A stretch of 64,000 nt of DNA from contig CANQSP010000001.1 of the NCBI GenBank assembly GCA_947626555.1, forward strand, positions 42 through 64,041, written 5' to 3'. A program made the translations under genes and the position numbers. Positions 6,692 to 62,989 of the stretch are shown here, piece by piece; positions within the stretch are counted from its first letter, which is position 1, and every line of letters starts with the position of its first letter. Source of the stretch: an uncultured Clostridia bacterium. GTDB lineage: Bacteria > Bacillota > Clostridia > TANB77 > CAG-508. The notes beneath the pieces are model-generated. The model saw nothing but the letters and a program-made list of their open reading frames with translations. It ran no database searches and was not told the origin of the DNA.

Positions 6692-6722
6692 GAAGCCAAG
6701 TTTAAAACAAGGCTTTTTATTT
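6692..6722 (+). terminator. weak rho-independent terminator after rplQ
   Basis: AAGCC-loop-GGCTT followed by TTTTTATTTT. Confidence 0.35.
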
Positions 6723-6724
6723 TA

Positions 6725-6989
6725 AACTATTAGGGACGGGGTTAAATAGTTTAGTGGTAATAATTTTAACTATAAAAGCAAAACATTAATATATTATTTA
6801 TTTAGTAACATTTTGTGGGGACCAGCAAATTATAGCTTGTAAAAAAATTTATTTTGTAAAACTTGTTTTGCATAAATAAATTTTTAAACAAGCTATTATG
6901 TAGCTGGGAGTTACTAAATAAATAATATATTCACGTTTTGCAATAGAGTAATTAAACCACTAAACTATTTAACCCCGTCCCTAATAGTT
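6725..6989. mobile_element. MITE-like element copy A (family 1, single TIR pair), flanked by TA/TA
   Basis: Perfect terminal inverted repeats AACTATTAGGGACGGGGTTAAATAGTTTAGTG ... CACTAAACTATTTAACCCCGTCCCTAATAGTT; palindromic interior; no ORF. Confidence 0.8.
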
Positions 6990-7009
6990 TAATATTTTTA
7001 AAATAAGTA

Positions 7010-7038
7010 TTGACAAAACAAAAATTCGCATATATAAT
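7010..7038 (+). promoter_or_regulatory. sigma-A-type promoter for recN (TTGACA-17 nt-TATAAT)
   Basis: Perfect -35 (7010-7015) and -10 (7033-7038) hexamers with 17-nt spacer. Confidence 0.6.
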
Positions 7039-7088
7039 ACTAACATAGCAAACAAATATTTGCAGAAAATATTTTCGGAGGTATGTAT

Positions 7089-8717
7089 ATGATAACAACA
7101 ATAAATATTAAAAATATAGGTATTATAGATAGTTTAAGTATAGACTTAAATCAAGGTTTTAATGTTTTAACAGGTGAAACAGGAGCTGGAAAAACATTAA
7201 TAATAGATTCTCTTGGAATAATATCAGGTGGGAGATTTTCAAAAGAAATGATAAGAAAAGGTGAAAACCATTCATATATAGAGGCATGTATATATTTGCC
7301 AGAAAATGAATTATCTATAGATGGAAATATTATAGTATCAAGGGAAATATATGCAAATGGAAGAAATATGTGCAAAATAAATGGAAGATTAGTAACTGTA
7401 AATGAATTAAAAGAGTTTATGAAAAAAGTAATAGATATACATGGTCAAAATGATAATCAAACTTTGTTAGATAAAAATTCACATATTGCTTATTTAGATA
7501 GTTTCATTGGCGAAAAAGTAAAAAAGTTAAAGAATAATTATAGAGAATTATTCAATAGATATCAAGAAATACAAAATCTCTTAAAATTGAATTATGGAGA
7601 CGATAAAGAAAAACAAAGAAGATTAGATTTATTACGTTATCAATTCAATGAAATAGAAATTGCAAATTTAAAAGTAGGAGAAGATGAAAAGTTAGAAGAG
7701 CAAAGGAAGTTTATATTAAACTCAGAAAAGATAGCTGAAAATTTGGATATTTCTGACAATGCATTAAGTAATGGAGCAATAGATGGAATAAATGAAGCTA
7801 TTAAAGCATTAGAAAAAATAGAAACAATAGATGAAAAATATTCTCAAAAATTATCAGAATTAAAAAGTTCATATTATGAAATACAAGAAATTTCAAGAGA
7901 TATAAATAGTATGAAAGAAGACGTATATTTTGATGAAGAAGAAAGGAATGAAATAGAAACAAGGTTAGATTTAATATTTTCTTTAAAAAGAAAATATGGA
8001 AATAGTGTTGAAGAAATATTAGCATATAAAGATGAATTAGAAAAAGAAATAGAGCAAATAGAGAACATTGATGAGTATAATAATAAATTAAAAAAAGAGT
8101 TGAAAGAATTACAAAGTCAAATGGCGGAATTGGCAATGGAAATGGATAAAATTAGAAAAATATTTGCTAAAGATTTATCAGAAAAAATAAATAATGAACT
8201 TCAAGATTTAGAAATGAGAAATGCAAAATTTAATTGTAAAATAGACTTCAATGAAAACAATGAGTTTAATAAAAATGGGTTAAATAATGTTGAATTTTTA
8301 ATTGCTACAAATGTAGGAGATGAAGAAAAGCCACTAATAAAAATAGCTTCTGGAGGGGAAATGTCAAGGATAATGTTAGCAATTAAATCTGTATTATCAG
8401 ATGTAGATAAAGTACCTGTTTTAGTATTTGACGAAATAGATACAGGAATTAGTGGTAAAGCTGCTAAAGCAGTAGGAAGTAAAATAAAAAATATTGCTAA
8501 AAATCATCAAGTGCTATGTGTTACTCATTTAGCAAGTATTGCTGCAAAGGGAGATTATAATTATTTCATTAGCAAAAAGGTAGAAGGAAATACGACAAAA
8601 ACGCAAGTAAAACAATTAAATGAAAAAGAAATAATCGAAGAAATAGCAAGAATTGCCAGTGGAGATATTACAGAGGTTACAATAGAACATGCTATGGAAC
8701 TAAGAAAGTTAGCCTAA
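7089..8717 (+). CDS. recN: DNA repair protein RecN (SMC-like ATPase)
   Basis: N-term NVLTGETGAGKTLIIDSLG Walker A, coiled coil, C-term SGGEMSRIMLAIK signature / VLVFDEIDTGISG Walker B; ATG 7089 fits GGAGG spacing (ORF track start 7083). Confidence 0.85.
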   Translation: MITTINIKNIGIIDSLSIDLNQGFNVLTGETGAGKTLIIDSLGIISGGRFSKEMIRKGENHSYIEACIYLPENELSIDGNIIVSREIYANGRNMCKINGRLVTVNELKEFMKKVIDIHGQNDNQTLLDKNSHIAYLDSFIGEKVKKLKNNYRELFNRYQEIQNLLKLNYGDDKEKQRRLDLLRYQFNEIEIANLKVGEDEKLEEQRKFILNSEKIAENLDISDNALSNGAIDGINEAIKALEKIETIDEKYSQKLSELKSSYYEIQEISRDINSMKEDVYFDEEERNEIETRLDLIFSLKRKYGNSVEEILAYKDELEKEIEQIENIDEYNNKLKKELKELQSQMAELAMEMDKIRKIFAKDLSEKINNELQDLEMRNAKFNCKIDFNENNEFNKNGLNNVEFLIATNVGDEEKPLIKIASGGEMSRIMLAIKSVLSDVDKVPVLVFDEIDTGISGKAAKAVGSKIKNIAKNHQVLCVTHLASIAAKGDYNYFISKKVEGNTTKTQVKQLNEKEIIEEIARIASGDITEVTIEHAMELRKLA

Positions 8718-8981
8718 ACTATTAGGGACGGGGTTAAATAGTTTAGTGAATTGAATACTCTATTGCAAAACATTAATATATTATTTATTTAGTAACATTT
8801 TGTGGGAACTAGCAAATTATAGCTTGTAAAAAATTTATTTTGTAAAACTTGTTTTGCATAAATAAATTTTTTTTACAAGCTATTATGTAGTTGGGAGTTA
8901 CTAAATAAATAATATATTAATGTTTTGCTTTTATAGTTAAAATTATTTCCACTAAACTATTTAACCCCGTCCCTAATAGTT
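8718..8981. mobile_element. MITE-like element copy B (family 1), TA-flanked; its first bases complete the recN TAA stop
   Basis: Same TIRs as copy A; interior ~95% identical to A but with outer sub-segments swapped. Confidence 0.8.
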
Positions 8982-8997
8982 TAGTGATGTAAAAGAC

Positions 8998-9026
8998 TTG
9001 ATATATATGTAAAAAAATGGTATAAT
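8998..9026 (+). promoter_or_regulatory. promoter of the GC-rich island gene (TTGATA-17-TGgTATAAT, extended -10)
   Basis: -35 8998-9003, TG 9018-9019, -10 9021-9026; followed by GCACGC-N13-GCGTGC inverted repeat (9054-9079). Confidence 0.5.
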
Positions 9027-9094
9027 TATTATGTAATCTACAAAAAATAAAATAGCACGCCAATATAATTATAGCGTGCGGAAGGAGAAAACGG

Positions 9095-10270
9095 ATGGAC
9101 TGTAAAAGAAGTACTAAGGAGGATTTATTGTTCTTTTTTAAGTTTGTGCGGAAACGTGCAAAGAGGTTGCAGAGAAGATTGAAAAGGAAAATAAATCAAG
9201 GAATTCAGTGGCTTGATTATAACCTTTTCAATATAGTATTAAATATGGCAGCTATTTTTGCAGCAGCAATACTGGTCCCTTTAGTAGTCGCAGCAGGGCA
9301 GGAGGCTGAAGCCGAGAAAGTTGATAAGATTATGGAGAATTATACCCAGATGAGAGTGGGGGATTATATATATTTGAAAGAAAATTCCCCAGAAGAACAG
9401 CAACGACCAATAATAGTGATAAAATCTGGAACAGAAGAATTTCATCAAGAGGAACACATAATCCATACACAAGAGAGTGTAGAAGGAATTGAATTGATTT
9501 CTTCTGTTGGAGAAATTCCTCTTATGGCTAATCTAGAAAGCATTGAATCTCCCAGGGCTGAAACTCCAGCTGAGTCTCAAATTGAGGCTGAAACAGAAAC
9601 TCAAGCAGAGGCAAAGACCAGAACTGAAACACAACCTCAGACGGAACCTGAGACAGAGGCACCAACTAAGGCTGAAACGCAACCTCAGACAGAGGCACAG
9701 ACCGAAGCTGAAACAGAACCAAAAGAAACTCAGTCATCAGATGCCATATCTTCTAACCAAAGGGCGTGCAATGAATACGCGGATGCCTTACTGGAAGAGG
9801 GTGTAATTACTGAAGAAGAGGCAGAGATGATTAAAGCCAGAGGAAATGGACCAGAGAACCCGTGGATTTCCAATGTTTCTGAAAATGTAATTGGAAATTT
9901 GGCAGACGTAATGTATGCCGAAGCGGGAAATTTAATTTCTCTGGAAGGTTGGGCTAGAGGAAAAAGAGCTCTCCTACTTGTTGGAAGTGTGGTATGCAAT
10001 AGATACCATTATCCAACGTTAGGAAACTGTGATACTCTGGCTGAGATAATATCTCTTCCGGGAGCATACGCTTCTCGTACACAAAGGCGGATGGGAAAGC
10101 GATACTATATAAGCGATGGATATGCTTACATAGAAGATTGGGCCAGAGATTTATATACCTATGGTCCAATCGGCCCAAGGACACTCATATGGCAAGGACC
10201 AAGACAGGGAATTGTGTATGAGGTTATCCATGGGGAGTATTTCGGGGTGGATAAAAACCCACCATTCTAA
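9095..10270 (+). CDS. membrane-anchored protein with acidic T/E/Q-rich repeats and C-terminal SleB/CwlJ-type (Hydrolase_2) cell-wall hydrolase domain; compositionally foreign
   Basis: N-term basic stretch + TM (IVLNMAAIFAAAILVPLVVAAG), repeats ETQPQTEAQTEAETEP, C-term ...AEAGNLISLEGWARGKRALLLVGSVVCNRYHYPTLG...; codons GCC/CTG/CCC/GGG and visibly higher G+C than all neighbours. Confidence 0.7.
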   Translation: MDCKRSTKEDLLFFFKFVRKRAKRLQRRLKRKINQGIQWLDYNLFNIVLNMAAIFAAAILVPLVVAAGQEAEAEKVDKIMENYTQMRVGDYIYLKENSPEEQQRPIIVIKSGTEEFHQEEHIIHTQESVEGIELISSVGEIPLMANLESIESPRAETPAESQIEAETETQAEAKTRTETQPQTEPETEAPTKAETQPQTEAQTEAETEPKETQSSDAISSNQRACNEYADALLEEGVITEEEAEMIKARGNGPENPWISNVSENVIGNLADVMYAEAGNLISLEGWARGKRALLLVGSVVCNRYHYPTLGNCDTLAEIISLPGAYASRTQRRMGKRYYISDGYAYIEDWARDLYTYGPIGPRTLIWQGPRQGIVYEVIHGEYFGVDKNPPF

Positions 10271-10290
10271 TACTCTGAGGTACAAGGCTT

Positions 10291-10334
10291 AAAAGCAAGG
10301 AGAAAGCAATGCAATCTCCTTGCTTTCTCCGTTT
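10291..10334 (+). terminator. rho-independent terminator ending the GC-rich island
   Basis: AAGCAAGGAG-13 nt loop-CTCCTTGCTT then TCTCCGTTTT. Confidence 0.7.
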
Positions 10335-10556
10335 TAATAGTTAGTTTTTATATTAATTTTCCAATAAATTATAATAATTAATTTATAAAATGCAAAAAAT
10401 ATAATAAATAAAGGGTATGAACTAAAATGAAATATATAAAAATACATTTATAAAGTATTGAAGAAATAAAATGCCAATGATATAATAAATTAACATTATA
10501 TACAATATATTTTAATAGATATCAATAAAACAACAAGAAAGGAATTGATAATAAAT

Positions 10557-11987
10557 ATGAGAAAAACAAAAATAGTATGTACAATAGGACCAGCTACAGA
10601 AAAAGTTGAAATATTAAAAGAATTAATGAAACAAGGAATGAATGTTGCAAGAATTAATTTTTCACACGGTGGAATAGAAGAACAAAGAAAATATATAGAT
10701 GCCGTAAAGCAGGCAAGGCAAGAATTAGATTTACCAATAGCTTTACTATTAGATACACAAGGACCTGAAATAAGAACCGGAAAGCTTGAATATGCACCAG
10801 TAGTATTGGAAGCTGGAAATATATTTACTTTGGTAAATGAAGAAATAATAGGTGATAGTGCAAGAGTAAGTGTAACGTATAAAGAATTATATAAAGATTT
10901 AAAAGTAGGCTCTACAATTTTAATAGATGACGGAAAAATAGAATTAGAAGTAGTTGAAATAAAAGGAACGGATGTAGTTTGTAAAATAACGAATGGTGGT
11001 GAATTAGGTAATAGAAAAAGTATAAATTTACCAGGTACACATGTGAACTTACCATCTTTAAAAGATAAGGATATAAAAGATTTAATAGATGGATGTAAAG
11101 AAGATTTTGATTATGTAGCAGCATCTTTTATAAGAAATAAAGAAGATGTTCTTGCAATAAGAAATGTGCTAGATGAAAATGGTGGAAAGGATATTAAAAT
11201 TATATCAAAAATAGAAAATCAAGAAGGAATAGATAATTTTGATGATATATTACAAGTTTCAGATGGAGTTATGGTTGCTCGTGGTGATTTAGGAGTTGAA
11301 ATACCTTTTGAGGAAGTTCCAGTTATGCAAAAGAAATTTATACAAAAATGTAATGATGTAGGAAAACTTGTTATAACTGCAACTCAAATGTTAGAAACAA
11401 TGACAGTTAATCCAACTCCTACAAGAGCAGAAATAAGTGATGTTGCAAATGCTATATTTGATGTAACAGGAGCAATAATGTTATCAGGCGAAAGCGCAAT
11501 GGGAAAATATCCTGTAGAATGTGTAAAAACAATGGTTAGAATTGCAAATGCAGTTGAAAAAGATATAAGATATTGGAGAAGATATCAAAGAAGAGAGATG
11601 GATTTATCACAATTAGATTATGAATTTAATTTATGTCGTTCAGTTACATTAACTGCAATGGAAATGAATGCTAGGGCAATATTTGCATATACACAAACAG
11701 GAAATACACCTAGAATGCTTGCAAGTTTGTTACCTGCATGTCCAATATATGCGTTTACATCAAGTGAAAAAACATATAAACAATTAGCATTAGCTTGGAA
11801 TACTACACCTATTTTGATAAAAGATAAAATAGAACCAAATGATGTAATTTCAGAGGGGATAGAAGAAGCAATAAGAAGAAATTATGTAGAAAAGGGTGAT
11901 ATAGTTGTGCTTGCAGGAGGAGCATCTGTTATTGCAAATCGCCATGATGCAATAAATAGAACTATCGGTGGAGTTCTAAAAATATAG
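10557..11987 (+). CDS. pyk: pyruvate kinase
   Basis: MRKTKIVCTIGPAT..., FSHG, MVARGDLG motifs; ATG 10557 preferred over TTG 10545. Confidence 0.92.
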   Translation: MRKTKIVCTIGPATEKVEILKELMKQGMNVARINFSHGGIEEQRKYIDAVKQARQELDLPIALLLDTQGPEIRTGKLEYAPVVLEAGNIFTLVNEEIIGDSARVSVTYKELYKDLKVGSTILIDDGKIELEVVEIKGTDVVCKITNGGELGNRKSINLPGTHVNLPSLKDKDIKDLIDGCKEDFDYVAASFIRNKEDVLAIRNVLDENGGKDIKIISKIENQEGIDNFDDILQVSDGVMVARGDLGVEIPFEEVPVMQKKFIQKCNDVGKLVITATQMLETMTVNPTPTRAEISDVANAIFDVTGAIMLSGESAMGKYPVECVKTMVRIANAVEKDIRYWRRYQRREMDLSQLDYEFNLCRSVTLTAMEMNARAIFAYTQTGNTPRMLASLLPACPIYAFTSSEKTYKQLALAWNTTPILIKDKIEPNDVISEGIEEAIRRNYVEKGDIVVLAGGASVIANRHDAINRTIGGVLKI

Positions 11988-12102
11988 TTTTAACTAAACC
12001 AAAGAAATGAGATTCTTAAAGCTATAAATTATTAATAAAAATATTAAATGTATGAATATTTTAAAGAAAGTAATAAATAGTTATGGAAAGGAATAATTGT
12101 TT

Positions 12103-12496
12103 ATGATAGATATAAAAAATTTAATTGAAGTTGCAAAACAAGCAAGAAATAATGCTTATGCTCCATATTCAAATTATAAAGTAGGATGTGCTTTAGTTTC
12201 TAAAAATCGGAAAAGTTTTTTCTGGTTGCAATATAGAAAATGGTGGTATAATGTCAATTTGTGCTGAAAGAGTAGCCTTTTCGAAGGCAATTTCTGAAGG
12301 AGAAAAAAATTTTGAATGTTTACTGGTTTTAGGTGGAAAAGAAAATCTAATATATACTTCTCCATGTGGATATTGTAGGCAATTTATTTCAGAATTTTGC
12401 GATAAAAATTTTAAAATTTATATTTATTATGAAGATGGAAAAATTATTGAGAAGACTTTAGAAGAATTATTGCCAGATAATTTTGAATTAAAATAG
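12103..12496 (+). pseudogene. cdd: cytidine deaminase with +1 frameshift (inserted C at ~12208)
   Basis: N-part MIDIKNLIEVAKQARNNAYAPYSNYKVGCALVSKN then frame change; C-part (ORF 12251-12496) carries CAERVA...PCGYCRQ zinc motifs; deleting C12208 restores ...[27 protein letters not shown]. Confidence 0.8.
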
Positions 12497-14637: not shown

Positions 14638-17600
14638 ATGATGGAGAATATGAAAAAAATAACATTTTTTTTAATTACTATGATTCTATCTTTAGCTGTT
14701 GCAACAAGTGTAAATGCAGTAGAAAATATAGAATTAAAAACTTCTAAAGATAAAGTAAATTTAGGAGAAGAAATTATAGTTTCATTAGACTTAAATATAG
14801 AAAATAAAGAGGAAACATCTTTATATGCTTATACTGCGAAGTTAAGTTATGATAAGGATGTTTTTGAAGTAATTGATGAATCTGATTTTGAAGAAAGTGA
14901 AAATTGGTCTGATATTACTTACAATAAAAGGAATAACAAATTTGCATTGATTAATAAAAAAGGAGAGACCGACGAAAGTATTTTAAAAATCAAGCTAAAA
15001 GTTAGAAAAAATGCTACCCCTGGAAATACTTCTATTACTGTAAATAGTATTACTGCATCAGATGGAAAAAAAGACATACCAATAGAAGGCAAAACAGTTG
15101 ATGTTATGGTAATAAAAACTGGGCTAGCAGAAGGTGAAAGCATTCCGTTAAATAAAACAAATGAAGTTGTAGAAGATACATCCAATATTGAAGTGGGAAA
15201 AGATTTCTCATGGATTGCTTATATACTTATAGCCTTAATAATTGTTATATTCATATTCACAATCTATTATTATATAAGTAGTAAAAAAAGAAATACTTCA
15301 AAAAATAAGAGAATCACAATTATGGTAGCATCTATTATAATTTTAGTTATTTTATTAATTACTACGATAATTCTGTTAACTGATAAAAAAGCAGATGTTA
15401 ATAAAGACGGTAAAGTTGATTATGATGATACAAAAGATATAATAGAATATTTGTTAGAAATAAAAAATCCACAAGAAGATGAAAATTTAAGTGATAAAGA
15501 TATAAACAAAGATGGACAGATTACAATAGGGGATGTTGCAGCATCTACTAATCAAGCAACAAATCAAGACTATCATGCTAATGTAAATGGCTCAAATAAT
15601 AACAGTAATACTAATGGAAGCACTAATAATCAAAGTAGTGAAGCTAATGCGAGCAAGCCAAATAACCCAAGTAATTCAACTAATCCAAGCGAACCAAGTA
15701 ATCCAAACGAACCAAGTAACCCAAGTGGTTCAACTAATCCAAATGAACCAAGTAATCCAACCAATCCAACCGAGCCAAGTAATCCAGCCAATCCAAACGA
15801 ACCGGACAATCCAGATAATCCAAACATCCCAAGTGAACCAACTAAGCCAGATAATCCTAATACCCCAAGTGACCCAACTAAACCAGATAATCCAAACACT
15901 CCAAGTGAACCTACTAAACCAGAAGAGCAATACTCATCAGTTGTAGAAACTACAACAGTAAGTAACCTTACTCCAAAGAAAGGTCAAGAAATAACATTAG
16001 ATTTATATATTGATGTAACACCATATACTGAAATTGAAGCTATTGAAATAGAAGGAAAATCGTATAAAGTAACAAAGGTTGAAGAACCTTCTGTAAGAAT
16101 AGCAAGTCTTGTACCAGTGAAATTTAAAGCAATTGCATCAAACATAAACGGAGGAGAAAATAATCATTATAAGGTAACAATACAAGCACCAACATCAGCA
16201 GGGGTACAGGATATACATATTACAAAAATAGAATTAGATAATGGAAAGAAAGTAAGTATAGACTATAGTGTTAAAGTAGATGTATTAAAAGATGCACCTA
16301 AAGTAAATGATTTTTATATTGATGATAAAAATGAGATTCCAGAAATAAGTTTTAACATTGAAGATTCAGATGGTGCTTTTAAAGGTGGAAAATTTAGTAT
16401 TACTGATGTAGATGGCAATGTTGTTTTTGTGTCAGAGAATATAAAAGTAGGTAAAAATACATTTAGTGCAAACTTAGAGGATGGAAAAACTTATCATTAT
16501 GATTTAGTAGCTGATTATGACTTAGACCATGATTATTTTGCTGAGAATATTGCGCCAAATCATAGAGAAGAAAAAGATTTTATAGATGATATTATTGAAG
16601 ATGAAGAAGGAAATCTTGAATTTACGAGAGAATATAATTTCTTAAGTAAAAATATGATGATAACTCCAGAAGTATCTAGTGAAGATGAACTAATACTTTC
16701 ATTTGAAAATGGTGCAGAATCATATTATAAAGTAACTTATGTAAAAGTAAATGGAGTAGAATATGAAGTTAAATTAGAAAATGGAAAATATATAACCAAA
16801 TTAAAGAAAGGAAGCAAAGGAAACAATACAATAACAGTAGAATCTGTTAAACTTGAAAATGGACATATTTTTACAGTTAATCAAACTTTTAGCTATGTAT
16901 ATTTAAAAGATAAACCAACAATAGGAGATATAGAAGTTAAATTAGAAGAAGGTAATTTGCATGTAAGTGCTCCTATAACGGACCAAGATAATACAATAAA
17001 AAGTGTTCAAGTTAAAATTAAAGACCAAAATGGAAATGTAATTAAAACAGAGAAATTAAATAAAAATTCAAATAATGGTTTATATTTGAATGATATAGAA
17101 ATAGATGTATCTGGAAAATATACAGTAGAAGTAGAAGTAACCTATGATTTAGGAAATGGAAAAGAAAATAAAGTAAGTAAAATATATGCTAAAAATATTA
17201 CTGAACCAATAAAGGCAACTATTTTAAAAGAACAATCTAGTATGGCTGAATATGCTACTAGAGGGAAAAAAGTAGAAGCAATTTATACTATAGAAGATAA
17301 TACAGAAAAAGAAGTAACCCATATAACCATAAATGGAGTAAAAATACCTGCAACTAAGTTAAGCGATGAAAAATATAAAGTAGAATTTTTAGCACCTAGT
17401 GAAAGACCACAAAATGGTAAAACTACAATAATAGCATCAGAATTATATTATAAAGATGAAGTAGAGCCAATAGAAGTAGAATGTGCATTTGAAATTGAAA
17501 TATTAAAATCTGTACCTACTATTGAAGATTTGCATATAAATGATTCAAGAGAAAAGCCAGAAATAAATTTTGTGCTTGTTGATGCTGAAAATGCCTTTAT

Positions 17601-20600
17601 AAGTGGAAAAATAATTATTACAGATGAGAATGAAAATAAAGTTACAGAAATAGAAATGTCTTTAATTGATACAGAAAATGGAATACAAACATATACCTTA
17701 GACAATATAGAGCAGGGTAAAGGCTATGAAATATCAATAGAAGCAACATACGATTTAGATATAGATAGAACAAATAATAAAAATGAAGAAACCAAAATAA
17801 TTAAAACTCATAAATTTAAAATTGAAAAAGATTATGAATTTACATTAAGTGATTTTAAATTTATAAACATAGAAAATGAAAAAGTAACTTTACAATTTAC
17901 AAGCACCAATAAAACAGAATATATTATTGAAAAAGTTGAAATAGAATTAAACGGAATTAGACATGAATATAAAGTTATAAAAAACGGAGATAATTATACA
18001 ATAGAAATTCCATTAACTGATATAAATAATACAAGAACAGAATTGACACTAGAAGAAGTTATATTAAGTAATTTAAAAGAATTTAACAGAGAAACGGATT
18101 TTGAATTATTTAGTAGCTTAGAAAAACAAGTAATATTTAAAAACAAGCCTACGGCAACAATAGGAAATGTTATAGTAAATGAAGAAGAAACACAGATAAT
18201 TGTAAGCAATATTAGTATAGAAGATACAGATAATGCATTACTTTCAGATAAACTTACAGTACAACTAAGAGATATAAATGGTACAGTTGTGGATAGTAAA
18301 AATATTAGTAGAACTGATACAGCAGTAACATTTGATTATAATAAAGCAGGAGACTACAAAGTAGTCATAGTTGCAGATTATGATATTGTTGACTTACAAA
18401 ATCATACAAATGAAGAGATTGCACAATCATCTATTATAACAATACATATAAAAGCAGAAATTATTAACAGCGAATTTAATAAATATCCAAACAAGAAAGA
18501 GCAAATGACAATAAAATACACAATAAAAGACAACACAAATAAAGATGTAACAGCAATTTATTTTAATGATATAAGGGTTGATGCAGTAAAACTAGGAGAA
18601 GATTTATATGAAGTAGTATACATTGCTCCAACAGAACATGGAAAGAAGTCAATTACTGCTAGTGAATTATATTATGGTGAAGAAGAAGTAGATGTAGTTG
18701 ATAAGAATGATGAAATAGATGTATTAAAAGATAAGCCAATAATTTCTAATTTTAAAGTTGTTACAGCAGGAGATAAGCCTAAGGCAACATTCGATATTAT
18801 AGATACTGATAATTCTTTTGTAGACGGAAAAATTATTATTAAAAATAAGGCTAATGATTCAATTAAAGAAGTTATAATTGTAAAAAATGATACAGGAATT
18901 ATAACAGAATATGAACTAGAAATTGATTCATTTGAACAATATGAAGTTAAATTACAAATAAATTATGATTTAGACTCTAATATTTTACCTTCACAAGGAG
19001 AAAATGATAATGTAGGAATACTTGAACAAGTTATAGAAATTGTTGAAGATATACAACCTTCTAAATTACAAATAAATGACTTAAAACTAAAAGAGGTAAA
19101 TGAAGAACAAGAAACAATAACACTAGAATTTACAAGCAAAAATCCATCTAAACATCATATAGCAAAAGTTAAGTTAGAGGGAAAAGAAGAAGAATTCTAT
19201 GTAACATATGATGAAGCAAGCGATACATATACATTAGTTTTACCATATAATAATGGAGAAAAAGAAACAATAACAATAGAAAAAGTTATTTTGGATAATG
19301 ATACACAAGATGAAGTAATTCTAGAGGAAAAAGCAAGTATCGAATTATTTAAAACAAAGCCTACAGTTCAAGAATTACGAGCTACTTATAATAAAGAAAC
19401 CAAAGTTATAAGTGCAACATTACTTATTAAGGATACGGATAATATAGTTACTAAGGCTTATGCTAAAGTTATTTGTCCAGATGGCGAAGAAAAGACTCAA
19501 GAAGAAGTTACATTAGAAAATAAATCAGGAGAGGTAACATTTGAAAATATAACTAAGGCTGGAACATATAAAGTTGAAATATTAGCAGACTTTAATGCAT
19601 TAGATGGAAAAATACATAATTCCGAAACTCTTGAATTAGAAGATAATGTAACAGATGAAGTATATGTTGAGATAAAAGTTAATGCAGTTTCTACAATAGA
19701 ACTTTCTAATAAGTATCCAGAAAAAGGTGGAACTGTTCAAGTAACATACAACATTGAAGACAATACAGATGAAAAAATAACAGCTATAGAGTATGGTGCA
19801 ACACATATAGCAAATAATCTTGAAGAGATAGACGGAAATTATAAAGCTATTCTTGGAGAGGAATTTACAGCTCAAGCAGGTGTAAGTACACTAAAAATAA
19901 CAAAAATACATTATGGAGATAAAATAATAGATGTAACACATGAGGGTGACAAGATAGATGTTTTAAAAGAAAAAATTTCATTTAATGAAAATACATTTAC
20001 TTCTACAGAAAATTTAGAAAAATCAACTGTTGCATTTACATTTGATATTATAAACCCTGATAATGCAATTATAGATGGAACAGCTTCTGTAGGAGAAAGT
20101 ATACAGAATTTTTCAAAAGCTCAGAATACATTAATATTTAATGTGGAAAAAAATAAAACATTAGAATTATTAATTAAAGTAAATTATGACAGAGATACAA
20201 ACACAATAGTTGAAGATGAAAATAAAAATGTTGAAACGTTAACAGTTGTAAAAGAATTTTCTTTAGATGAAGATATGGAATTTGATATAACGGATATATA
20301 CACAAGTAAAGTAAATACTGAAACATTACAAGAAACAAACACACAATACTTTAATAAAGGAGAAGAATTTAGAGTAAACTTTAAAACTGCTACAAATTCA
20401 GCACTTAAAGTATCCTACGTAACAATTGGTGGAACGAAATATAATGCACAAGAAATAAATAGTGAAGCAAACATAGAAGAAGTTGAAGGATACTATGCAA
20501 TTGTTAAAGCATCAGAAAGTGAAAAAGGAGTAAAAGAATTAAACATAGATTCTGTTACTTTATCAGATGGAAAAGTTATAACACTTGAAAATAAAAACTT

Positions 20601-23600
20601 AAAATATGAAATATTAAAAGATAAGCCTATTATAAATACATTTAATGTAAGCAATATAGGAACAGATGTCAATATTTTAGTAGATGTACTAGATCCAGAT
20701 GATGCATTAAAAGAGACGGCAAAAGTCACAATAACAGACAATTCAAATGGAGAAGAATTATTTAATAGCCCAATTATAAAAGGTACAAATCATTATGAAT
20801 ATAAAGCAGAACTTAATAAAGAATATTTAATTAAAGTTATAAATGGATATGACTTGGATTCAAATGAACTAAATGTTGGAAGTGAAAACTTAAATGTATA
20901 TGAAGAACTATATACACAACAACTTTTAAAAATAGAGGATACGGCTAAATTTTCAGCAGTTCATGTAACAGTACCAAGTATTGTAACAGATGATGATGAA
21001 AACGTAATACTAACTTTTGAAAATGTATACCAATCAATTTATGATGTTAAAGAAGCTACTATAAATGGAATTCCATATACAGTCACAAAAGAAGATAATG
21101 TATACAAAGTAGTTTTAGAAAAAGGAGAAAAAGGTGACAATATATTAAAATTTACATCAGTAAAGCTTTCAAATGATTCTGTATTTGAAGTTAATAGAAA
21201 TATAAAATATTTATATGAAAATGTAAGACCAATAGCTGAAAATATAGAAATAAATGAAGTTCGTAGTGAAGATATGGTAAAAGCTACATTTACAGTTAAT
21301 GATAAAGATGAAGCAACTGAAAAACTATATGCAAGGTTATACAATAGTAATGGAGTTCAAATAGAAGAAACTGAATTAGACAAAAATGCTACAGAAGTTA
21401 GTTTCTCATTGCCAAAAGCATATAAATATAGTATTGATATTTTAGCTGATTATGATAAAGGTAATGGAACAAATTATGAAAAAATTGTAATTGGTTCTAA
21501 AGTTCACGAAGTTGGACCGGTTGTAGAAATAACTGAATTTAAAACAGAAGATAAAAAATTCTTTGAAAAAGATGAAGAAAACGTAAAACTTATATATAAA
21601 ATAAATACAAATATAGATGAGAATGTAAGACTATTTAGAATAAATGGAGTAACATATGATGCAGAAAAAATAGATACGGATACTTATAGAGTGTTATTTG
21701 ATGGTGTTGGAAATCAAGGAGGAACTTTAACTTTAGAAGTACAACAGATTGTATTTGAGAAGACAATGCATAAATTAGAAAACTATTATAAGTCAACTAT
21801 TGAAGTCTTGAGGCAAAAGCCAGAAGTTTCACAGGTAATAGCCGAAAATAAAGATGGCAAATTCGAACTATCATTTAAAATGAAAGATGATGATGAGGCT
21901 CTAACAGGAAACATTAATTTAAGAATACTAGACGAAGAAGAACAAGTTTATTTAGAAGAAAATATACAATTAAATGATAAACAATATAATAAAATTATAG
22001 ATAATTTACAATTTAATAAGGATTACAAGATAATTATAACTGCAAATTATGACTTAGATGGTGATTTAACAGGTAATGGTAATGAATATACAGGTGAGCA
22101 ACTTTTAGAACAAACAATTAAGGTTGAAAATAATATAGAGTACAACTTTAAATTTAGTGATTTTGGACTTATGACTCCAGATATGCCATTAGCATGGCCA
22201 GGATATCCATTATATTTACAATTTATAAGTACAAACGATTCTCAATATAAAGTAGACTCAATTGTTTTAAATGGAGTAGGATATAAAGTTGAAGAAATGT
22301 ATGGATTATATATGATATCAGAATATATTCCTGAAATAAAAAGTGGTATTCAAGAAGTTAAAGCAGAAAAAGTAATATTAAGTAATGGTAAAGCTTTTGA
22401 TATAAATGGTGAGGAAAATAAAGCTAAATTTGAAGTATTAAGAGATTATCCTAAGGCTAGTATTTTATCAATGACAGAAGATACAGAAAGAGGAAAACTA
22501 AAGATTGTATTTCAAATTCGAGATGATTTTAATACAATTAAGGATCCTACAGATATTAAAGTTTTAATATATAGTAGTGACTCAGATGAACCATATCAAA
22601 CCAAAAAAATCTCTATAGGTGATACAGAAGTTGAACTTGATACACCATTAGCCTCTGAATATGTTATAGAATTTTTAGCTGATGCTACAGTTTCAGAATT
22701 GATGCCTGAATATAACCAATTAAACTCTAAATTAGTTGAAAAAACATTTGAAGCTAAACAAAGTACTGTTATTACAGAAGTAAAACCAGAGACATATTAT
22801 CCTGAAAAAGGTGCAATTTTTGGAGTAAATTATAAGATTTTAACATTAAGTAAGAAAAAGGTAGTTGCAATAACTATAAATGGACAGAGAAGTATAGTTG
22901 ATGAAAATGGTACAAATACTTATAAAGCATGTCTTTCAGCAAATAATGAAGCAGGTTTAATGACATTTACAACATCTACAATAGAATTTGAAGATGGGTC
23001 AACAGTTGATTTTAAAGCAAGTGACCAAGTAGAAGTAATAAAAGAATTACCAATAATTACAAATCTTACAAGAACAGATAATTTTGATGAAAAATCTGCA
23101 ACATTTACATTTAATGTAGAAGATCCTGATGGAATAATAAATGAAGGTGGAACATTTAAAGGAAGTATTAATGGGCAAAATAAAGATTTAAATATTGGTG
23201 AGAATTCTATGACATTTACAAATCTAACGCCTAATGCCAATATAGAGTTCAATGTTATTGGTACTTATGATTTAGATACAAATGCATTAAATAGTGTTAC
23301 AGGAAAGAATGATAATAATCATATAGGAGATAAAATCTTTACAAGACAATTCTTATTTACTGAAAATAATGACTTATATAGAGTTACAAAACTAGAAACA
23401 CAAAAAAATAATAAACAAAATACTTATTTTGAAAAGGATGATGAAATAAGACTAAAATTTAACTTTATTTGGGTAGATGACACATATGTAGAAAAAGCAA
23501 AAGTTAACGGAGAAACTTATGATGCTTACAAAAATGGCGAAGATTATACTATTGTTTTAAATAAAATGACCGATGTAGGAATACATGAAATTAAATTAGA

Positions 23601-26600
23601 AAGCATTAAATTAAGCAATGGTAAAGAAATACCACTTAAAGAAAATAATATTGTAAAAATAGAAATACTAAAAGATAAACCTTCAATGAGTAAATTTAGT
23701 TTTAATGATAATGACAAAGATATTTCTTTAAATATTACTATATTAGACAAAGATAATGCTATTCCAGAAAACAATCAACTTGATATTGAAGTACTTGACG
23801 AAAATAATAAAAATGTTTGTTCTGAAAAATTAAATGTAGGAGAAAACACGGTTACATTTAATAAAAATGATAGTAATAGATATTTAATAAAAGTTATAGC
23901 TTCTTATGATAGAGATACAAATGAAATAGATCAAAACTCTAATGAAATTAAAAATGGTGAAATTGCATTTGAAAACATTAATATAAATGAACGTAAATAT
24001 GAATTAAAAGACATTACAAATATTGATGTATACCACTTCTCAGAAGACGGAAACGTTGAAAAGACTAATACTATAGAATATAGTAAAATAAATAGCTATA
24101 AAGAAACTTATATAGTAAAAGTAGAAATGAAATCTCTACCATCATATTATGGAAAGATAGAAGAATATAGGAATGAAAATGGTAAATTAGTATTTACTCT
24201 AAGTAATGAAAATATAATTTTATACAATAATGATGAACCAACTGAAAAATGTGACATAGTTTATGGAACAATAGTAGGTGATATAGCTACTAAAGAAGAC
24301 ATCTATTCTTTAAATGATAGTAGTCCAGAAGGACTATATATTCCTGATTATAATAGAATTAGCAAATTACAAGGATTTAGTACAGAGAAACATAAATTAT
24401 ATCATAACTTAAATAAATTAATGCCATTTTATGATTCTAAATACTTAGTAAGAGACGGAGAAAAAATAGAAAAAGAAAATATATTAAATACAAAACTAAT
24501 AAAAGAAGTAATTCCTGTAAATAAAAATGGTGAAGCGGTTATTGCAGTTTCAACAGATGATTACCAAAATTTATCAAGCATAAAAGTAATATTTGATGAT
24601 GACGAAATGAAAAAATATAATATTGAGTTTAATGAATATTATAGTGGAATAGCATCATATATTATTCCAGAACTAGGAATTGAATATAACTATAATAATT
24701 ATGTTATAAAATCAGATGCTAGAATTATAAAGGATTTAAAAGATACAATAAGTAAATTCAACTATAGAACTGATTTAGATGTATTAACAGCAGATTTAGA
24801 TAGTAGAATTTATAGAGAATATTACGAAGATACATTAAAACAAGAATTTGATGATTTTATTAAAAAATTATTAGTTAGCAAAAATTATAGTGTAGTAATA
24901 GAAAGTGATACCTATAACGAACTAATTAAAAAGGACTTATTAAGTGAAACAACTTTAATGAAATGGATATATGCATACAATTATATTCATCGTTGGTATT
25001 CTTTCGATATAGATGGCTTAAAGATGAGTGATATACTTGTATTTAAAGGTAATTTATTAAATAAACCTACAACAATAGAAAGCATATCTCAAGATGTTTT
25101 AAGCGGAAATATAACTACCTATTCAACAGGAGAATTCTATAAAAATAAATTAGCACAATACACAGGACAACAAGATGTATTTGAATTTGTAAAATATTAT
25201 GTGCAAAAATATGCGGAAGACAAAAATATAGAGACTTGGTATAGAGATAATGTTCCAGGTATAGTTGTAGAAGCACAATGTATAAATAAAGAAGTACAAT
25301 ATTCACTATGGCATAATTTAAGTATAAATGTAGGAAAGTATAATAAATATGTACTTGTACTTCTAACACTTCCAGATGATGCAGCATATATAATTTCAAA
25401 TCCAACATCTATATTGTTCGGATCTCAAAGAACATACGTACAAAATCCTAAAGATCCAGTACAAAGAGCTAAGTTACAAGCATTAGCTGATAGTTTTGCT
25501 AATGATGTATCAAAATTCTTCTCAACACTTTCAACATTTGTATCAATTGAAGAGATGAATAGAATGAGTACGGTGCATTTAGATACATTATTAACATATG
25601 TTGATGGAGGTACTGGTTCAAGAGTTGTTCAAAAACCTTTAACGACACAAGAGCCATTCCATAAAAACTTCTGCGAAGTTTTAAATGATTGGACAATTTT
25701 GAAAGGAGCTGGAGCATACTGTGGCGGAGGTAGTGTATACTTTGTTTATGAAGATGCATTACGTGCATACTCAGTATGGACTCATGAAAATGCACACTTA
25801 GGAGCATTCCAGAATTTGCTATGTGGTGGATGCAGAAATAGAATTATAAGAGAAGATATGCCTGATGGAAATATAACGCAAGGTTCAGGAGATGGTGGAA
25901 TAAGCTTTAACTTAACTTATGATTATGACAAAAATGCTTTAGTTACTACAAATTTAACAACGGAAAGAATAAATACTCCTGAAAAAATGAAGCAATTCTA
26001 TAGCAGATTGATAGATACAAGTGATTTCTTAGATTATATTGAAGCTAAAGCATTCTTACAGTTAAATGCTGAACAACAAGCTAAATTATGCTTACAAGTG
26101 TCTTATCCGAAAGGATCAGGTCAATATATAGATGGAGAAATAACTAAATACGAAAAAATAGATAAAGAAAAAATTGAAGCAATGCATTTAGATGATGTTC
26201 ATGATTTATGGACAAATCAAATAGTAATGGTGCCTGGTGTAACAGAAAGAACAATGACACCAAGTCTGTATGGAGGAGATTCAATATACACAAGACATTG
26301 GTATCAACCATATAATGACAATGGTAGAGCTGATTCATATAGTTTTAAATGGTTAGCATTTGAAATGATTGCAACAGGAGGATATAAGGAGGGCTATAGA
26401 TATTGGTATGGTAGCAACGGAGGAAAAATAAAAAATGATTTACAATCATTAAGAGCAATTACTAAAAATGAAAATATGACATTTGAACAATATAAAATAG
26501 ACAGATATAATAAGATGCAGAATAACTGGGAGAATATGAAATTCTTTGATGCAACTGAAGTACAAAAAGAATACTTAGAAGCATTAAAGAAAGATGCAGA

Positions 26601-33549: not shown

Positions 33550-33790
33550 AAGTTGTATAATTAAAGTACAATATAGAATAGTTATTTGAGGTGGTAAATT
33601 GTGTCAACCACGCACCCTATGGGTCAAAAGAGATGTAGGAAATGATACACCTACCAAATAACTAACAATCGAAAAAAGGGCTATGGAAACATAGCTCTTT
33701 TACTTATTTTACAACATTATAAATTTCTTCAAACACTGCTGGTCTTTTAGAATAGTCTTGTCTTTAGCTATTGACAACATATTGGTACGT

Positions 33791-38659: not shown

Positions 38660-38776
38660 AAATACATAAAGAAAAATGTCGAATTTTGCTTGTAAAAGTA
38701 AAGTGATTGTGATAAACTTACCGTGTAAATTTTTAATAACTTTTATAACATTATTATGTTAAAAGGAGGGAAATGT

Positions 38777-53994: not shown

Positions 53995-54314
53995 GGACGG
54001 GGTTAAATAGTTTAGTACAACTATTAATTTATAAAGAGTTAAACTATTAGGGACGGAGTTAAATAGTTTAACAACTTAATTGTTATATAGCAAAACATTA
54101 ATATTATATATTTTGAAGTGATTCGTGGGGACCGTTTTAGAAAATGTTACGAACATGTGTGAGTTACATTTTCTTAAATGGGGCAACGCAAAAATATATA
54201 ATATTAAGGTTTTGCAAGTAATATGATTTAAATTTTGTTAAACTATTTAACTCCGTCCCTAATAGTTTAATTAAAAAATAAGTGCTAAACTATTTAACCC
54301 CGTCCCTAATAGTT
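53986..54314. mobile_element. MITE-like element copy C (family 2: nested, double TIRs), TA-flanked
   Basis: Outer TIR AACTATTAGGGACGGGGTTAAATAGTTTAG + inner TA-flanked element with TIR AACTATTAGGGACGGAGTTAAATAGTTTAAC; palindromic core with GTGGGGACC. Confidence 0.8.
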
Positions 54315-54421
54315 TAGCAAAATAATAAAATTGTGTTGAATATTGTATAATTTTGTAATATACTAAATAAAGAATTTGCGATACAATTAGTTTATCAAAC
54401 TGTGAAAGGAATGTTAAAATA

Positions 54422-58982: not shown

Positions 58983-59073
58983 AAAAGTTGAGTAAATATC
59001 CAACGTTTTTCAAAATGAATAAAAAACACCAAATTTGGAAATTATATTTTCAAGAAGAGGTGTTTTTATTTAT

Positions 59074-60106: not shown

Positions 60107-60170
60107 TAGTTGACAAAGCAGTACATAAATGATAAAATGAAACGGAATTTAAGAATAGTTGGAGGGCTAA

Positions 60171-62904: not shown

Positions 62905-62989
62905 AGTTATACTATTGATTTTTAACTATAAATGTGGTATTATGTATAAGATTAAATAAGATATGAAATAAAGAAAGGGGAATTAAATT

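Follow-up and report, generated by a model that had tools for sequence, protein, structure and literature searches.

Gene X, an ORF of 391 aa in a 64,000-nucleotide stretch of clostridial DNA (the whole of which we call the window), probably encodes a resident, membrane-anchored and divergent wall hydrolase of the Hydrolase_2 superfamily, the alleles of which would turn over by recombination between conserved flanks—an account that we favour with moderate confidence. The gene resides on the chromosome and is confined to a single clade of uncultured, low-GC Clostridia of the gut, and two ENA assemblies carry a protein identical to it, with downstream genes that are also alike. The features on which the analysis draws are compiled in Table 1.

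Table 1 Features of gene X and its surroundings, together with the canonical SleB of the window
Feature	Coordinates	Strand	Remarks
recN	7083..8717	+	Upstream anchor of the slot; NCBIfam TIGR00634, 489.6 bits (cut-off 407.85)
MITE-like palindromic repeat	8714..8984	.	Between recN and X; perfect 35-nt terminal inverted repeats, nested 32-nt and 18-nt arms
Sigma-A-type extended -10 promoter (predicted)	8998..9026	+	TTGATA-17-TGgTATAAT; 11/12 consensus positions plus TG
5′ UTR stem-loop	9055..9079	+	GCACGC...GCGTGC; fold -10.2 kcal/mol, z = -2.3 (weak)
Ribosome-binding site	9080-9088	+	GGAAGGAGA; directly after the 5′ UTR stem-loop
Gene X	9095..10270	+	391 aa ORF; membrane-anchored, divergent Hydrolase_2-superfamily protein
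Lys/Arg-rich N-terminus, aa 1-44	9095..9226	+	Net charge +10
Single transmembrane helix / signal anchor, aa 45-68	9227..9298	+	Only hydrophobic 19-mer; Kyte-Doolittle 2.65
Acidic low-complexity stalk, aa 69-215	9299..9739	+	Net charge -24
T/E/A/Q/P-rich imperfect repeats, aa 151-215	9545-9739	+	Within the acidic stalk
Helical hairpin (YA..LL.EGVIT..EA), aa 216-257	9740..9865	+	Precedes the catalytic domain in the close clade
Catalytic domain, divergent Hydrolase_2, aa 258-391	9866..10267	+	Invariant residues, profile, AF2 model
Terminator-like hairpin closing the variable cassette	10292..10326	+	17-nt arms; -20 kcal/mol, z = -3.9
pyk	10545..11987	+	Downstream anchor of the slot; Pfam PK + PK_C
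Canonical SleB of the window	about 59035-59778		PG_binding_1 + Hydrolase_2; TIGR02869, 305.5 bits

Composition, signals and genomic slot of gene X

The first-pass annotation had described X as markedly richer in G+C than its flanks and built from codons that are rare elsewhere in the window, and a sliding-window GC and codon calculation confirmed both. GC amounts to about 41.7%, against 27.7% for the window (52.8, 39.8 and 32.4% at codon positions 1, 2 and 3), while the other long ORFs of the window (n = 36) average 28.1% GC (sd 3.2) and 14.6% GC3 (sd 4.2), which places X at z = 4.2 for GC and z = 4.2 for GC3. The steps are abrupt: GC per 100 bp is 0.33–0.52 across 9100–10299, 0.23–0.28 immediately upstream, and 0.21 followed by 0.15 immediately downstream, and the GC-richest kilobase in the window is 9001–10000 (0.396). 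When the amino acids of X were held fixed and its codons redrawn by the window's own usage, the prediction was 34.7% GC (sd 0.5) and 13.5% GC3 (sd 1.5), as opposed to about 41.8% and 32.3% observed (GC3 z = 12.7; codon log-likelihood z = -13.8). Since redrawing yields a GC of 34.7% and not the observed 41.8%, amino-acid composition and codon choice each account for roughly half of the GC excess. The composition of X is thus unlike that of its host both by the standard of the other ORFs and by that of its own amino acids, and the only other gene of the window with a comparable codon or GC departure lies at 38756–39928.

X would be transcribed as a unit of its own from the predicted extended -10 promoter, which the first-pass annotation had also called. 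The site scores best in the region, where promoter-like sites (10, versus 8.5 expected from shuffles) are not more numerous than chance would have it, and a 50-nt stretch at this promoter, AAAAGACTTGATATATATGTAAAAAAATGGTATAATTATTATGTAATCTA, is identical in the window and in its two closest species, L008 and L009. The 5′ UTR that follows diverges in both species, and with it begins the variable segment. Downstream of the gene, the proposed strong terminator stood as far as its hairpin is concerned; its U-tract is poor, and a terminator scan gave no call. The hairpin is kept in L008 and L009 with compensatory A>G and T>C changes. The variable segment is made up of the 5′ UTR and the CDS, with the conserved promoter on one side and the conserved terminator on the other. 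An Rfam search found no element upstream of X or elsewhere near it, and we accordingly rejected a ydaO-type riboswitch such as lies upstream of SleB2 and SleB3 of Clostridium botulinum.

X indeed lies directly downstream of a MITE-like repeat (copy B of the first-pass annotation), the first bases of which overlap the recN stop codon. This element is dispersed genome-wide, with at least five copies in the window, and it occupies the same site in L008 and L009. It therefore predates the split of these two species, is not specific to X as a cargo, and is uninformative on the mobility of the gene; as a carrier of X it was dismissed on the same grounds.

The synteny of the locus contradicts the earlier proposal of a single-gene island acquired horizontally, as all close relatives sampled have an X orthologue at this position. 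In L008 and L009 (RecN 90–91% and pyk 92–93% identical) the gene order is rpoA-rplQ-recN-[X]-pyk-cdd-hlyIII, with the same promoter, terminator and MITE. In five further lineages, X orthologues lie next to recN, pyk or prmC, in the orders recN-(radical SAM)-[X]-prmC (L001/L010), recN-[X] (L022), [X]-pyk (L023) and recN-[X]-prmC (L026/L027), and in L028 recN is followed by two X-family members (RecN 84–85% identical in L010/L022 and 74% in L028). An empty site was thus found in none of L008, L009, L010/L001, L022, L023, L026/L027 and L028, and the slot is empty or otherwise filled only where RecN identity is 75% or lower. Depending on the lineage, its occupants are Hydrolase_2-like, canonical Hydrolase_2 or 3D-domain enzymes: Pfam-positive Hydrolase_2 proteins come after recN in L099, L103, L030, L045 and L046 (RecN 61–75% identical), and 3D-domain proteins fill the slot in L012 and L013. 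We also considered an in-place domain swap, by which the latter would share the N-terminal part of X, and discarded it on an unconvincing BLASTP alignment (14-residue match, E = 0.1). Hallmarks of mobility, namely an integrase or transposase, a tRNA target or a flanking direct repeat, were not found at X, which is neighboured by recN and pyk; the sole tRNA in the window is at 52276, and such direct repeats as surround X are weak and AT-rich.

Architecture and family of the encoded protein

The layout first read from the translation—a basic N-terminus, one transmembrane segment, an acidic T/E/Q/P repeat stalk and a C-terminal domain—was borne out by the charges and by the single hydrophobic segment (Table 1). 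By the positive-inside rule, aa 1–44 would be cytoplasmic, and the predicted topology has the N-terminus inside the cell and a disordered acidic stalk holding the hairpin and the catalytic domain outside the membrane. X would remain tethered in this way, with the length of the stalk fixing its reach into the wall. A hydrophobic segment precedes the domain in 105 of the 163 complete family members. The stalk is conserved among orthologues neither in length nor in sequence, and its repeat is weak in the DNA (36-nt unit, 2.1 copies, 81% matches). X carries a conserved GQEAEA motif, a candidate site of cleavage. The helical hairpin, modelled by AF2 as helices at aa 220–234 and 240–249 (pLDDT about 97), is conserved solely in the close clade; matches of CtsR_C and CARD to this segment were weak, fell under their cut-offs and were set aside.

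For the C-terminal domain, the earlier assignment to Hydrolase_2 holds at the level of the superfamily, and no curated model detects X directly. Neither the whole protein nor its C-terminal 151 aa matched Pfam Hydrolase_2 (PF07486, gathering score 27 bits) at E <= 10, NCBIfam gave no match in the domain (the SleB equivalog model TIGR02869 failed), and no Hydrolase_2 match came from sequence searches of the PDB, whether the query was the full-length protein or its C-terminal domain. The precomputed Pfam field of the close homologues P0001 and P0002 likewise reads '-'. The connection came from intermediate sequences and profiles. A profile of three close-clade sequences retrieved 116 proteins among 1.84 billion representatives and matched P0014 (E = 6.4e-15), which in turn matches PF07486 at 38.1 bits; 17 of the 29 aligned family members match PF07486 (best E = 3.3e-13); and searched against the PDB, the family profile had the SleB structures 4F55 and 4FET as its top matches, with the catalytic Glu aligned. 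By hhalign, the 29-sequence family profile matched the window's own SleB with a probability of 92.3% (E = 5.4e-7, 64 columns), the C-terminal third of the X domain lying outside the match, and a 9-sequence close-clade alignment gave no signal (probability 0.7%).

The structural model may agree with this placement. AF2 modelled the X domain with a pLDDT of 95.3 (a first run on a 3-sequence alignment reached 43.7 and was discarded), and while Foldseek against the PDB returned nothing with E below 2, the top matches of a BFVD fold search were all phage cell-wall hydrolase or SleB-domain proteins, the best with E = 4e-4, TM 0.55 and 3.4 A over 128 columns. Across 29 sequences, E276 (codon 9920–9922), R303, Y325, A350, G357 and Q367 are invariant. 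In alignments with 4F55 and with the window's SleB, E276 falls on the Glu of the YGE motif, and the family has the catalytic Glu in a (Y)(A/G)E motif as well as the NR and GQ(F/Y) motifs. By profile and hhalign, the X domain belongs to the Hydrolase_2 (SleB/CwlJ/YkvT) superfamily, within which it is highly divergent, and the model may fit this as well.

Divergence of the cassette and rival accounts

Between L008 and L009, nucleotide identity is 0.94–1.00 in the flanks and drops to about 0.68–0.87 exactly over X. For the same pair, dS is 0.06 in rpoA, 0.17 in recN and 0.12 in pyk, and X reaches a pS of 0.61 across its full length and of 0.76 in the catalytic domain, at a dN/dS of about 0.1–0.15. 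pS is distributed along X as a mosaic; in columns 281–320 of the three-way alignment, the comparison of the window with L009 gives pS 0.50 and pN 0.03. Identity matrices reveal that the gene tree of X is incongruent with that of its flanks: L008 and L009 share 97% identity in RecN and 78% in their X domains, whereas the X domains of the window and L009 are 85% identical. X has an evolutionary history distinct from that of its flanks, and horizontal replacement of alleles within a resident slot is therefore likely, as a new insertion is not. Of the horizontal origin suggested earlier, what stands is the differing history of the CDS, seen in saturated sites and incongruent trees; what falls is the insertion.

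In the account that we favour, the cassette would comprise mosaic alleles far older than the surrounding genome, most likely because homologous recombination within the conserved flanks has replaced alleles time and again. Were these alleles drawn from a gene pool with a GC-richer codon usage of its own, this would explain a 'foreign' composition at a fixed position. Apart from recombination, balanced alleles of ancient origin or a locally elevated mutation rate may have caused the divergence of X. The anomaly itself is shared by orthologues (GC/GC3 of 0.424/0.306 in L008, 0.431/0.362 in L009 and 0.378/0.244 in L023); it is less pronounced in L010 and L022, and L026 shows no excess of GC3 (0.133). 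As to the donor pool, no close-clade relatives of X were found in scans of IMG/VR and JGI metagenome contigs or by tblastn in INPHARED phages and PLSDB plasmids. A diversity-generating retroelement was considered as the source of the variability, with which the gene-wide synonymous saturation is at odds, since such elements direct adenine-targeted mutagenesis to a short variable region.

The strong codon and GC anomaly, the sharp steps at both ends of X, the adjoining MITE and a word-indexed search of 5.8 billion proteins that gave just two relatives would all suit a recent genomic island, that is, a single gene inserted horizontally, perhaps with the aid of the MITE, and not yet ameliorated. 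Such an event is nonetheless extremely improbable given that the two closest species have X in this slot too, with the promoter identical, the terminator conserved and the MITE in place, and given the linkage to recN, pyk or prmC in five further lineages, the dispersed nature of the MITE, and the lack of an integrase, tRNA or direct-repeat boundary at X. Strictly vertical descent accords with a slot conserved across deep divergence. Here, GC-ending rare codons would be selected, for example by throttling the translation of a potentially lethal autolysin or slowing membrane insertion, and raised local mutation or relaxed synonymous constraint would inflate dS. Orthologues and other wall hydrolases of the slot also show the excess of GC3 (mean GC3 of 0.316 for membrane-anchored Hydrolase_2, 0.228 for 3D-domain and 0.168 for secreted Hydrolase_2 proteins, and ~0.125 for housekeeping neighbours), the donor searches (IMG/VR, JGI, INPHARED, PLSDB) were negative, and a dN/dS of ~0.1 signifies ordinary purifying selection. 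Yet codon selection is expected to lower rather than saturate synonymous divergence, the dS excess is at least about ten-fold and stops at the promoter and terminator, the trees of X and of its flanks disagree, and the pS values within X form a mosaic; moreover, the L026 orthologue implies that the GC3 excess is not required for function, and the window's canonical SleB has ordinary codon usage. Taken together, we consider strictly vertical descent unlikely.

With regard to function, X could do the job of SleB/CwlJ as a spore-cortex lytic germination enzyme anchored in the spore membrane, given its superfamily membership and retained catalytic Glu, the spore genes of the organism (including SleB, TIGR02869) and the several SleB-like paralogues of unknown role held by Clostridia (PMC5083711). 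This is very unlikely, however, as a canonical SleB is already present in the window, X has no peptidoglycan-binding domain and fails the SleB equivalog model, and such enzymes are normally well conserved, whereas X is hypervariable. Its near-consensus, housekeeping-type promoter would likewise make X more likely a vegetative wall-remodelling enzyme than a germination enzyme. There is equally little likelihood that X is a domesticated or exchanged phage lysin, derived from phage membrane-anchored Hydrolase_2 lysins and still recombining with them. Phage proteins are the best structural matches to the X model, distant Pfam Hydrolase_2-positive members of ~200 aa reside on phage-like contigs with DnaB, Pol III alpha, PD-(D/E)XK and many small ORFs, and P0008 adjoins a large serine recombinase (GC3 0.466 versus 0.08–0.15 in its flanks); but the phage-borne members are only ~30–35% identical to X and not GC-rich relative to their own contigs, searches of IMG/VR and INPHARED found no close-clade relative, and phage genes flank X in none of the loci. 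Finally, we think it doubtful, and quite unlikely, that the position after recN is a dedicated diversification locus for membrane-anchored wall hydrolases, with alleles that pass from species to species by way of an invariant promoter and terminator while keeping their GC-rich codon signature. If it were, balancing or frequency-dependent selection could maintain the alleles—candidate pressures being phages for which the enzyme or its wall product is either a tool or a barrier, antibodies of the host, and kin discrimination—and the rare-codon signature would be a built-in translation brake.

Known relatives and wider meaning

With SleB and CwlJ (PF07486; 4F55, 4FET), X has in common the superfamily, as judged by profile and hhalign and perhaps by fold, three conserved motifs, namely ..YAE.. 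with the catalytic Glu, ..VV.NR.. and ..GQ(Y/F).., and probably the chemistry; its putative activity would be cleavage of peptidoglycan glycan strands in the manner of a SleB-like lytic transglycosylase. Unlike SleB, X has no direct Pfam or NCBIfam match and, in place of PG_binding_1, possesses a basic tail, a transmembrane helix, an acidic stalk and a helical hairpin; it also differs in its housekeeping-like promoter and in being hypervariable rather than conserved. SleB proper is recognized by its expression in the forespore under sigma-G, by its partner YpeB and by its dependence on muramic-delta-lactam. X has no ypeB-like gene beside it, and the true SleB orthologue of this genome lies elsewhere in the window.

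Of the other relatives, YkvT of Bacillus subtilis, a third Hydrolase_2 paralogue that belongs to the WalR regulon and whose function is not determined (PMC10653849), resembles X by description as a non-germination paralogue tied to vegetative wall metabolism, a role that X may share; in contrast to X, YkvT is Pfam-positive for Hydrolase_2 (5.8e-28, table in PMC10653849). As SleB2 to SleB5 of C. botulinum illustrate, clostridial genomes have several extra Hydrolase_2 proteins, with varied N-terminal modules and unknown roles, and some of these are on mobile DNA, SleB4 being encoded on a conjugative plasmid (PMC5083711). These SleB-like proteins carry LysM or peptidoglycan-binding domains, where X has a transmembrane helix and an acidic stalk. 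The phage 'Cell Wall Hydrolase / SleB domain' proteins that best match X in structure (BFVD A0A8S5R6I4, A0A8S5UCB2 and others) are 15–23% identical to it in structural alignments, ~170–230 aa long and without linkage to recN, and the X-family members P0120 and P0037 are on phage-like contigs. For the evolutionary behaviour, a parallel is offered by pneumococcal lytA, an autolysin gene that exchanges segments with phage lysin genes. Like X, lytA is a chromosomal wall hydrolase gene at a fixed locus, with mosaic alleles older than the flanking genome; it differs in encoding an amidase, and searches of IMG/VR and INPHARED turned up no phage donor of X.

The findings overturn nothing in current understanding and constitute a lead of moderate weight. 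They describe a branch of the SleB/CwlJ superfamily so divergent that it escapes Pfam and NCBIfam and has thus been overlooked by annotation, comprising 116 representative clusters in gut Clostridia and on phage-like contigs, with a recurring layout of basic tail, transmembrane helix, acidic stalk and catalytic domain. For genome scans, they counsel caution: a sharp GC and codon anomaly beside a repeat looks like an island, and here belongs to a gene resident in all close relatives. If allele turnover holds, this wall hydrolase would be among the fastest-changing loci in these uncultured gut bacteria, which would point to pressure on the cell surface from phage, host immunity or competitors.

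Composition of the gene downstream of recN and its place in relatives

The gene lying between recN (assigned by TIGR00634) and pyk, here termed X, is G+C-richer than its surroundings and atypical in its codons, as the first-pass annotation had proposed by eye and as sliding GC and codon calculations now bear out. At about 41.7–41.8% GC versus 27.7% for the window, it occupies the GC-richest of the window's 64 kilobases, with steps up at ~9100 and down at ~10300 at 100-bp resolution. GC by codon position is 52.8/39.8/32.4%, and relative to the 36 other long ORFs (mean GC 28.1%, sd 3.2; mean GC3 14.6%, sd 4.2) X scores z = 4.2 for GC and z = 4.2 for GC3. With the amino-acid sequence fixed and each codon redrawn from the window's own usage, expected GC was 34.7% (sd 0.5) and expected GC3 13.5% (sd 1.5), the latter versus 32.3% observed (z = 12.7; codon log-likelihood z = –13.8); hence, about half of the GC excess stems from an Ala/Glu/Thr/Pro/Gly/Arg-rich protein and about half from atypical codons. 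A comparable codon anomaly is seen in just one further gene of the window (GC 37.3%; GC3 35.0% versus 15.0% expected, z = 12.7; for codon log-likelihood, z = –13.5), which is flanked by a small radical-SAM-like ORF and ffh; the N-terminus of its product weakly resembles Thy1/ThyX (40.8 bits in Pfam; 30.6 bits for TIGR02170, under the cut-off).

Features of the window (coordinates on the forward strand)
Feature	Position	Description
MITE-like copy	6722–6992	
recN	7083–8717 (+)	stop 8715–8717
MITE-like copy	8714–8984	overlaps recN end
Promoter-like site	8998–9026	TTGATA-17-TATAAT, upstream TG
X	9095–10270 (+)	391 aa
Hairpin	10292–10326	17-nt arms
Deaminase gene	12097–12496 (+)	two overlapping ORFs, 56 + 81 aa
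Giant ORF	14638–28215 (+)	4525 aa
Skipping-rope RNA	33581–33662 (+)	Rfam RF02924
Thy1-like gene	38756–39928 (+)	390 aa
MITE-like copy	53983–54317	overlaps ORF ending 53994
sleB	59035–59778 (+)	stop 59776–59778
MITE-like copy	59775–60109	overlaps sleB end
MITE-like copy	62567–62905	overlaps ORF ending 62575

Loci of relatives, all from MAGs of uncultured gut Clostridia, were collected via RecN with one genome per species. The two closest species (L008 and L009; RecN 90–91% identical) share the gene order of the window, and their X proteins share its architecture. The compositional anomaly goes with X from locus to locus (background GC3 0.09–0.16), although it is weaker in L010 and L022 and, for GC3, lost in L026. 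X had been described as a single-gene island, with its presence in the same context in relatives named as the observation that would speak against this; the synteny check found the same slot occupied in all close relatives sampled, and the island is therefore given up.

X in the close clade: gene order and composition
Locus	Gene order	GC of X	GC3 of X
L008	rpoA-rplQ-recN-[X]-pyk-cdd-hlyIII	0.424	0.306
L009	rpoA-rplQ-recN-[X]-pyk-cdd-hlyIII	0.431	0.362
L001/L010	recN-(radical SAM)-[X]-prmC	0.373 (L010)	0.179 (L010)
L022	recN-[X]	0.333	0.189
L023	[X]-pyk	0.378	0.244
L026/L027	recN-[X]-prmC	0.303 (L026)	0.133 (L026)

Further out, at L028 (RecN 74%), a family member with a domain ~32–34% identical to that of X lies downstream of recN. 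Positions 6947–10410 of this locus encode three consecutive putative membrane-anchored wall hydrolases (GC3 0.22–0.24 versus 0.10–0.13 in housekeeping neighbours): two X-family members followed by a protein of 322 aa that reaches only 28 bits with an NCBIfam peptidoglycan-hydrolase model (cut-off 500) and was judged glucosaminidase-like by eye. Across 80 more distant metagenome loci (RecN 61–75%) the first gene past recN varies, and at five of them the slot holds a Pfam-positive Hydrolase_2 protein, membrane-anchored in L099 and L103 and secreted in L030, L045 and L046. At L012, L013, L031, L032 and L034 (RecN ~72–75%) it holds a mutually related membrane-anchored protein of mildly raised composition (mean GC 0.347, GC3 0.228), identified as Pfam 3D domain (PF06725) in L012 (11723–12535) and L013 (12025–12714), the remaining three being grouped with these by BLASTP clustering only. 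No significant similarity between this group and X was found, and its domain assignment predicts a distinct wall-cleaving enzyme, broadly of X's kind, at this position. The rplQ–recN interval is variable too, since L001 and L010 alone have a 296-aa ORF inserted there (L001 4716–5606; GC 0.341, GC3 0.212; no Pfam match).

Other features of the window were recorded alongside. The cytidine/deoxycytidylate deaminase gene is called with the same split on L006, an independent assembly, and is intact in L008 (130 aa); the split is a frameshift or pseudogene specific to the window species. The giant ORF is of ordinary composition, and its protein on L006 gives Peptidase_M26_C and faint Glug matches, and is therefore probably a giant surface protein. 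The skipping-rope RNA scored 74.7 bits versus a gathering score of 36.7.

Domain identity, predicted membrane anchor and putative transcript boundaries

The proposed C-terminal Hydrolase_2 domain holds at superfamily level, by profile and hhalign comparison, but not as a direct match: the domain had no Pfam match even at E ≤ 10, no NCBIfam match and none among PDB sequences, and a word-indexed search of 5.8 billion proteins returned only two relatives, each 52% identical and without Pfam domains. A profile from these three sequences, run against 1.84 billion cluster representatives, recovered 116 proteins, many of which—outside the close clade—are also Pfam Hydrolase_2-positive (family member P0014 at 38.1 bits); of 29 aligned family members, 17 match that model (best E = 3.3e-13). 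The best PDB matches of the family profile were the SleB catalytic-domain structures 4F55 and 4FET (E = 0.03–0.09), with an invariant family Glu aligned to the Glu of the SleB YGE motif. Likewise, hhalign of the 29-sequence alignment against the window's canonical SleB (probability 92%, E = 5.4e-7) paired LLADVMYAE with LLARLVYGE, GSVVxNR with AAVVLNR and GQY with GAF; six columns are invariant (E276, R303, Y325, A350, G357 and Q367 in X). An AF2 model with a deeper alignment (pLDDT 95.3, pTM 0.92; a three-sequence model with pLDDT 43.7 was discarded) had only phage proteins as top BFVD matches, labelled 'Cell Wall Hydrolase', 'SleB domain' or 'spore cortex-lytic enzyme' (best E = 4e-4, probability 1.0, TM 0.55, 3.4 Å over 128 columns), and this predicted structure is in part consistent with the placement. 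By these comparisons the domain is predicted to belong to the Hydrolase_2 superfamily, on a branch missed by current models.

X was rejected as a SleB orthologue; SleB is encoded elsewhere in the window, with PG_binding_1 and Hydrolase_2 (126 bits), TIGR02869 at 305.5 bits and ordinary codon usage. Given this canonical SleB, the organism is probably a spore former. Downstream of sleB lie a MITE-like copy and then a YqeG-family phosphatase gene, with no ypeB-like gene next.

The suggested architecture of X was recovered in full: a basic N-terminus (aa 1–44, net charge +10), a single hydrophobic segment (aa 45–68; Kyte–Doolittle 2.65) and an acidic stalk (aa 69–215, net charge –24) whose last 65 residues are E/T/A/Q/P-rich, the underlying DNA repeat being weak (36-nt unit, 2.1 copies, 81% matches). 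A hydrophobic segment is present near the N-terminus in 105 of 163 complete family members, and the stalk is net acidic in 84% of those 105. By the positive-inside rule, the N-terminus would lie in the cytoplasm, and stalk and domain outside.

The extended –10 promoter assigned to X ranks first among the promoter-like sites of the region (11/12 positions), where the number of such sites does not exceed chance; a 50-nt stretch containing it is identical in the window, L008 and L009 (3/3 genomes). What had been called a strong terminator stands as a hairpin (–20 kcal/mol, z = –3.9), kept in L008 and L009 with compensatory changes, but has a poor U-tract and was not called by a terminator scan of the region. 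The palindromic MITE-like element directly upstream of X was confirmed, and a same-site copy between recN and X is present in both L008 and L009. Its family (five or more copies within the window, ~270–340 bp, termini CTAAACTATTAGGGACGGGGTTAAATAGTTTAGTG) also occurs in these two species and was absent from those more distant relatives that were examined. For four of the five copies listed, the start lies at the 3′ end of the preceding ORF or within that end; the elements may be a source of stop codons or terminators, or have gene ends as targets.

History of X relative to its flanks

In nucleotide sequence, L008 and L009 have an identity of 0.94–1.00 over rpoA, rplQ, recN and pyk, which drops to 0.68–0.87 exactly across X and is back at 0.98 ahead of pyk. 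Nei–Gojobori estimates for this pair gave dS of 0.06 (rpoA), 0.17 (recN) and 0.12 (pyk), versus pS of 0.61 for the whole of X and 0.76 (saturated) for its catalytic domain, at dN/dS ~0.1–0.15; along X, pS is a mosaic of 0.26–0.41 in the N-terminal and transmembrane part and 0.63–0.87 in the domain. Identity matrices conflict—L008 and L009 are 97% identical in RecN but 78% in the X domain, for which the window and L009 reach 85%—and the window and L009 share an X segment with pS 0.50 and pN 0.03. X has a history different from that of its flanks, with an at least ten-fold excess of synonymous divergence under purifying selection, bounded by conserved promoter and terminator.

Allele replacement at X by homologous recombination would yield purifying selection and excess synonymous divergence between conserved bounds, and the same pattern would be expected of allelic lineages maintained over long periods. 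Selection for rare codons would not, on its own, raise dS. The best reading is that X is a resident hypervariable cassette, replacing the island interpretation; of the horizontal acquisition originally envisaged, the history unlike that of the flanks stands, while insertion does not, the slot being resident in relatives. As to a donor pool for this cassette, we found no close X relatives in IMG/VR, a JGI metagenome scan, INPHARED phages or PLSDB plasmids; more distant family members lie on phage-like contigs. Of the family members seen, P0008 (L029 1451–2209; GC 0.44, GC3 0.466; flanks GC3 0.08–0.15) contrasts most strongly in composition with its surroundings; it is bordered by the gene of a large serine recombinase (GC3 0.146) and one with a PASTA domain (GC3 0.078), a context that looks like a mobile element.

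Proposed function

The conserved Glu and the relationship to SleB, reported as a lytic transglycosylase (PMC10653849), suggest that X cleaves glycan strands. Clostridia carry several SleB-like paralogues whose function is not known (PMC5083711). With a near-consensus housekeeping promoter, a canonical SleB encoded by another gene and no peptidoglycan-binding domain of its own, X would have a vegetative, membrane-tethered role in wall remodelling, closer to YkvT—an uncharacterised paralogue of the WalR regulon—than to germination. The X protein adds a new and strongly diverged variant to a known enzyme superfamily; without showing a new kind of system, it has an evolutionary pattern that is uncommon among wall hydrolases.
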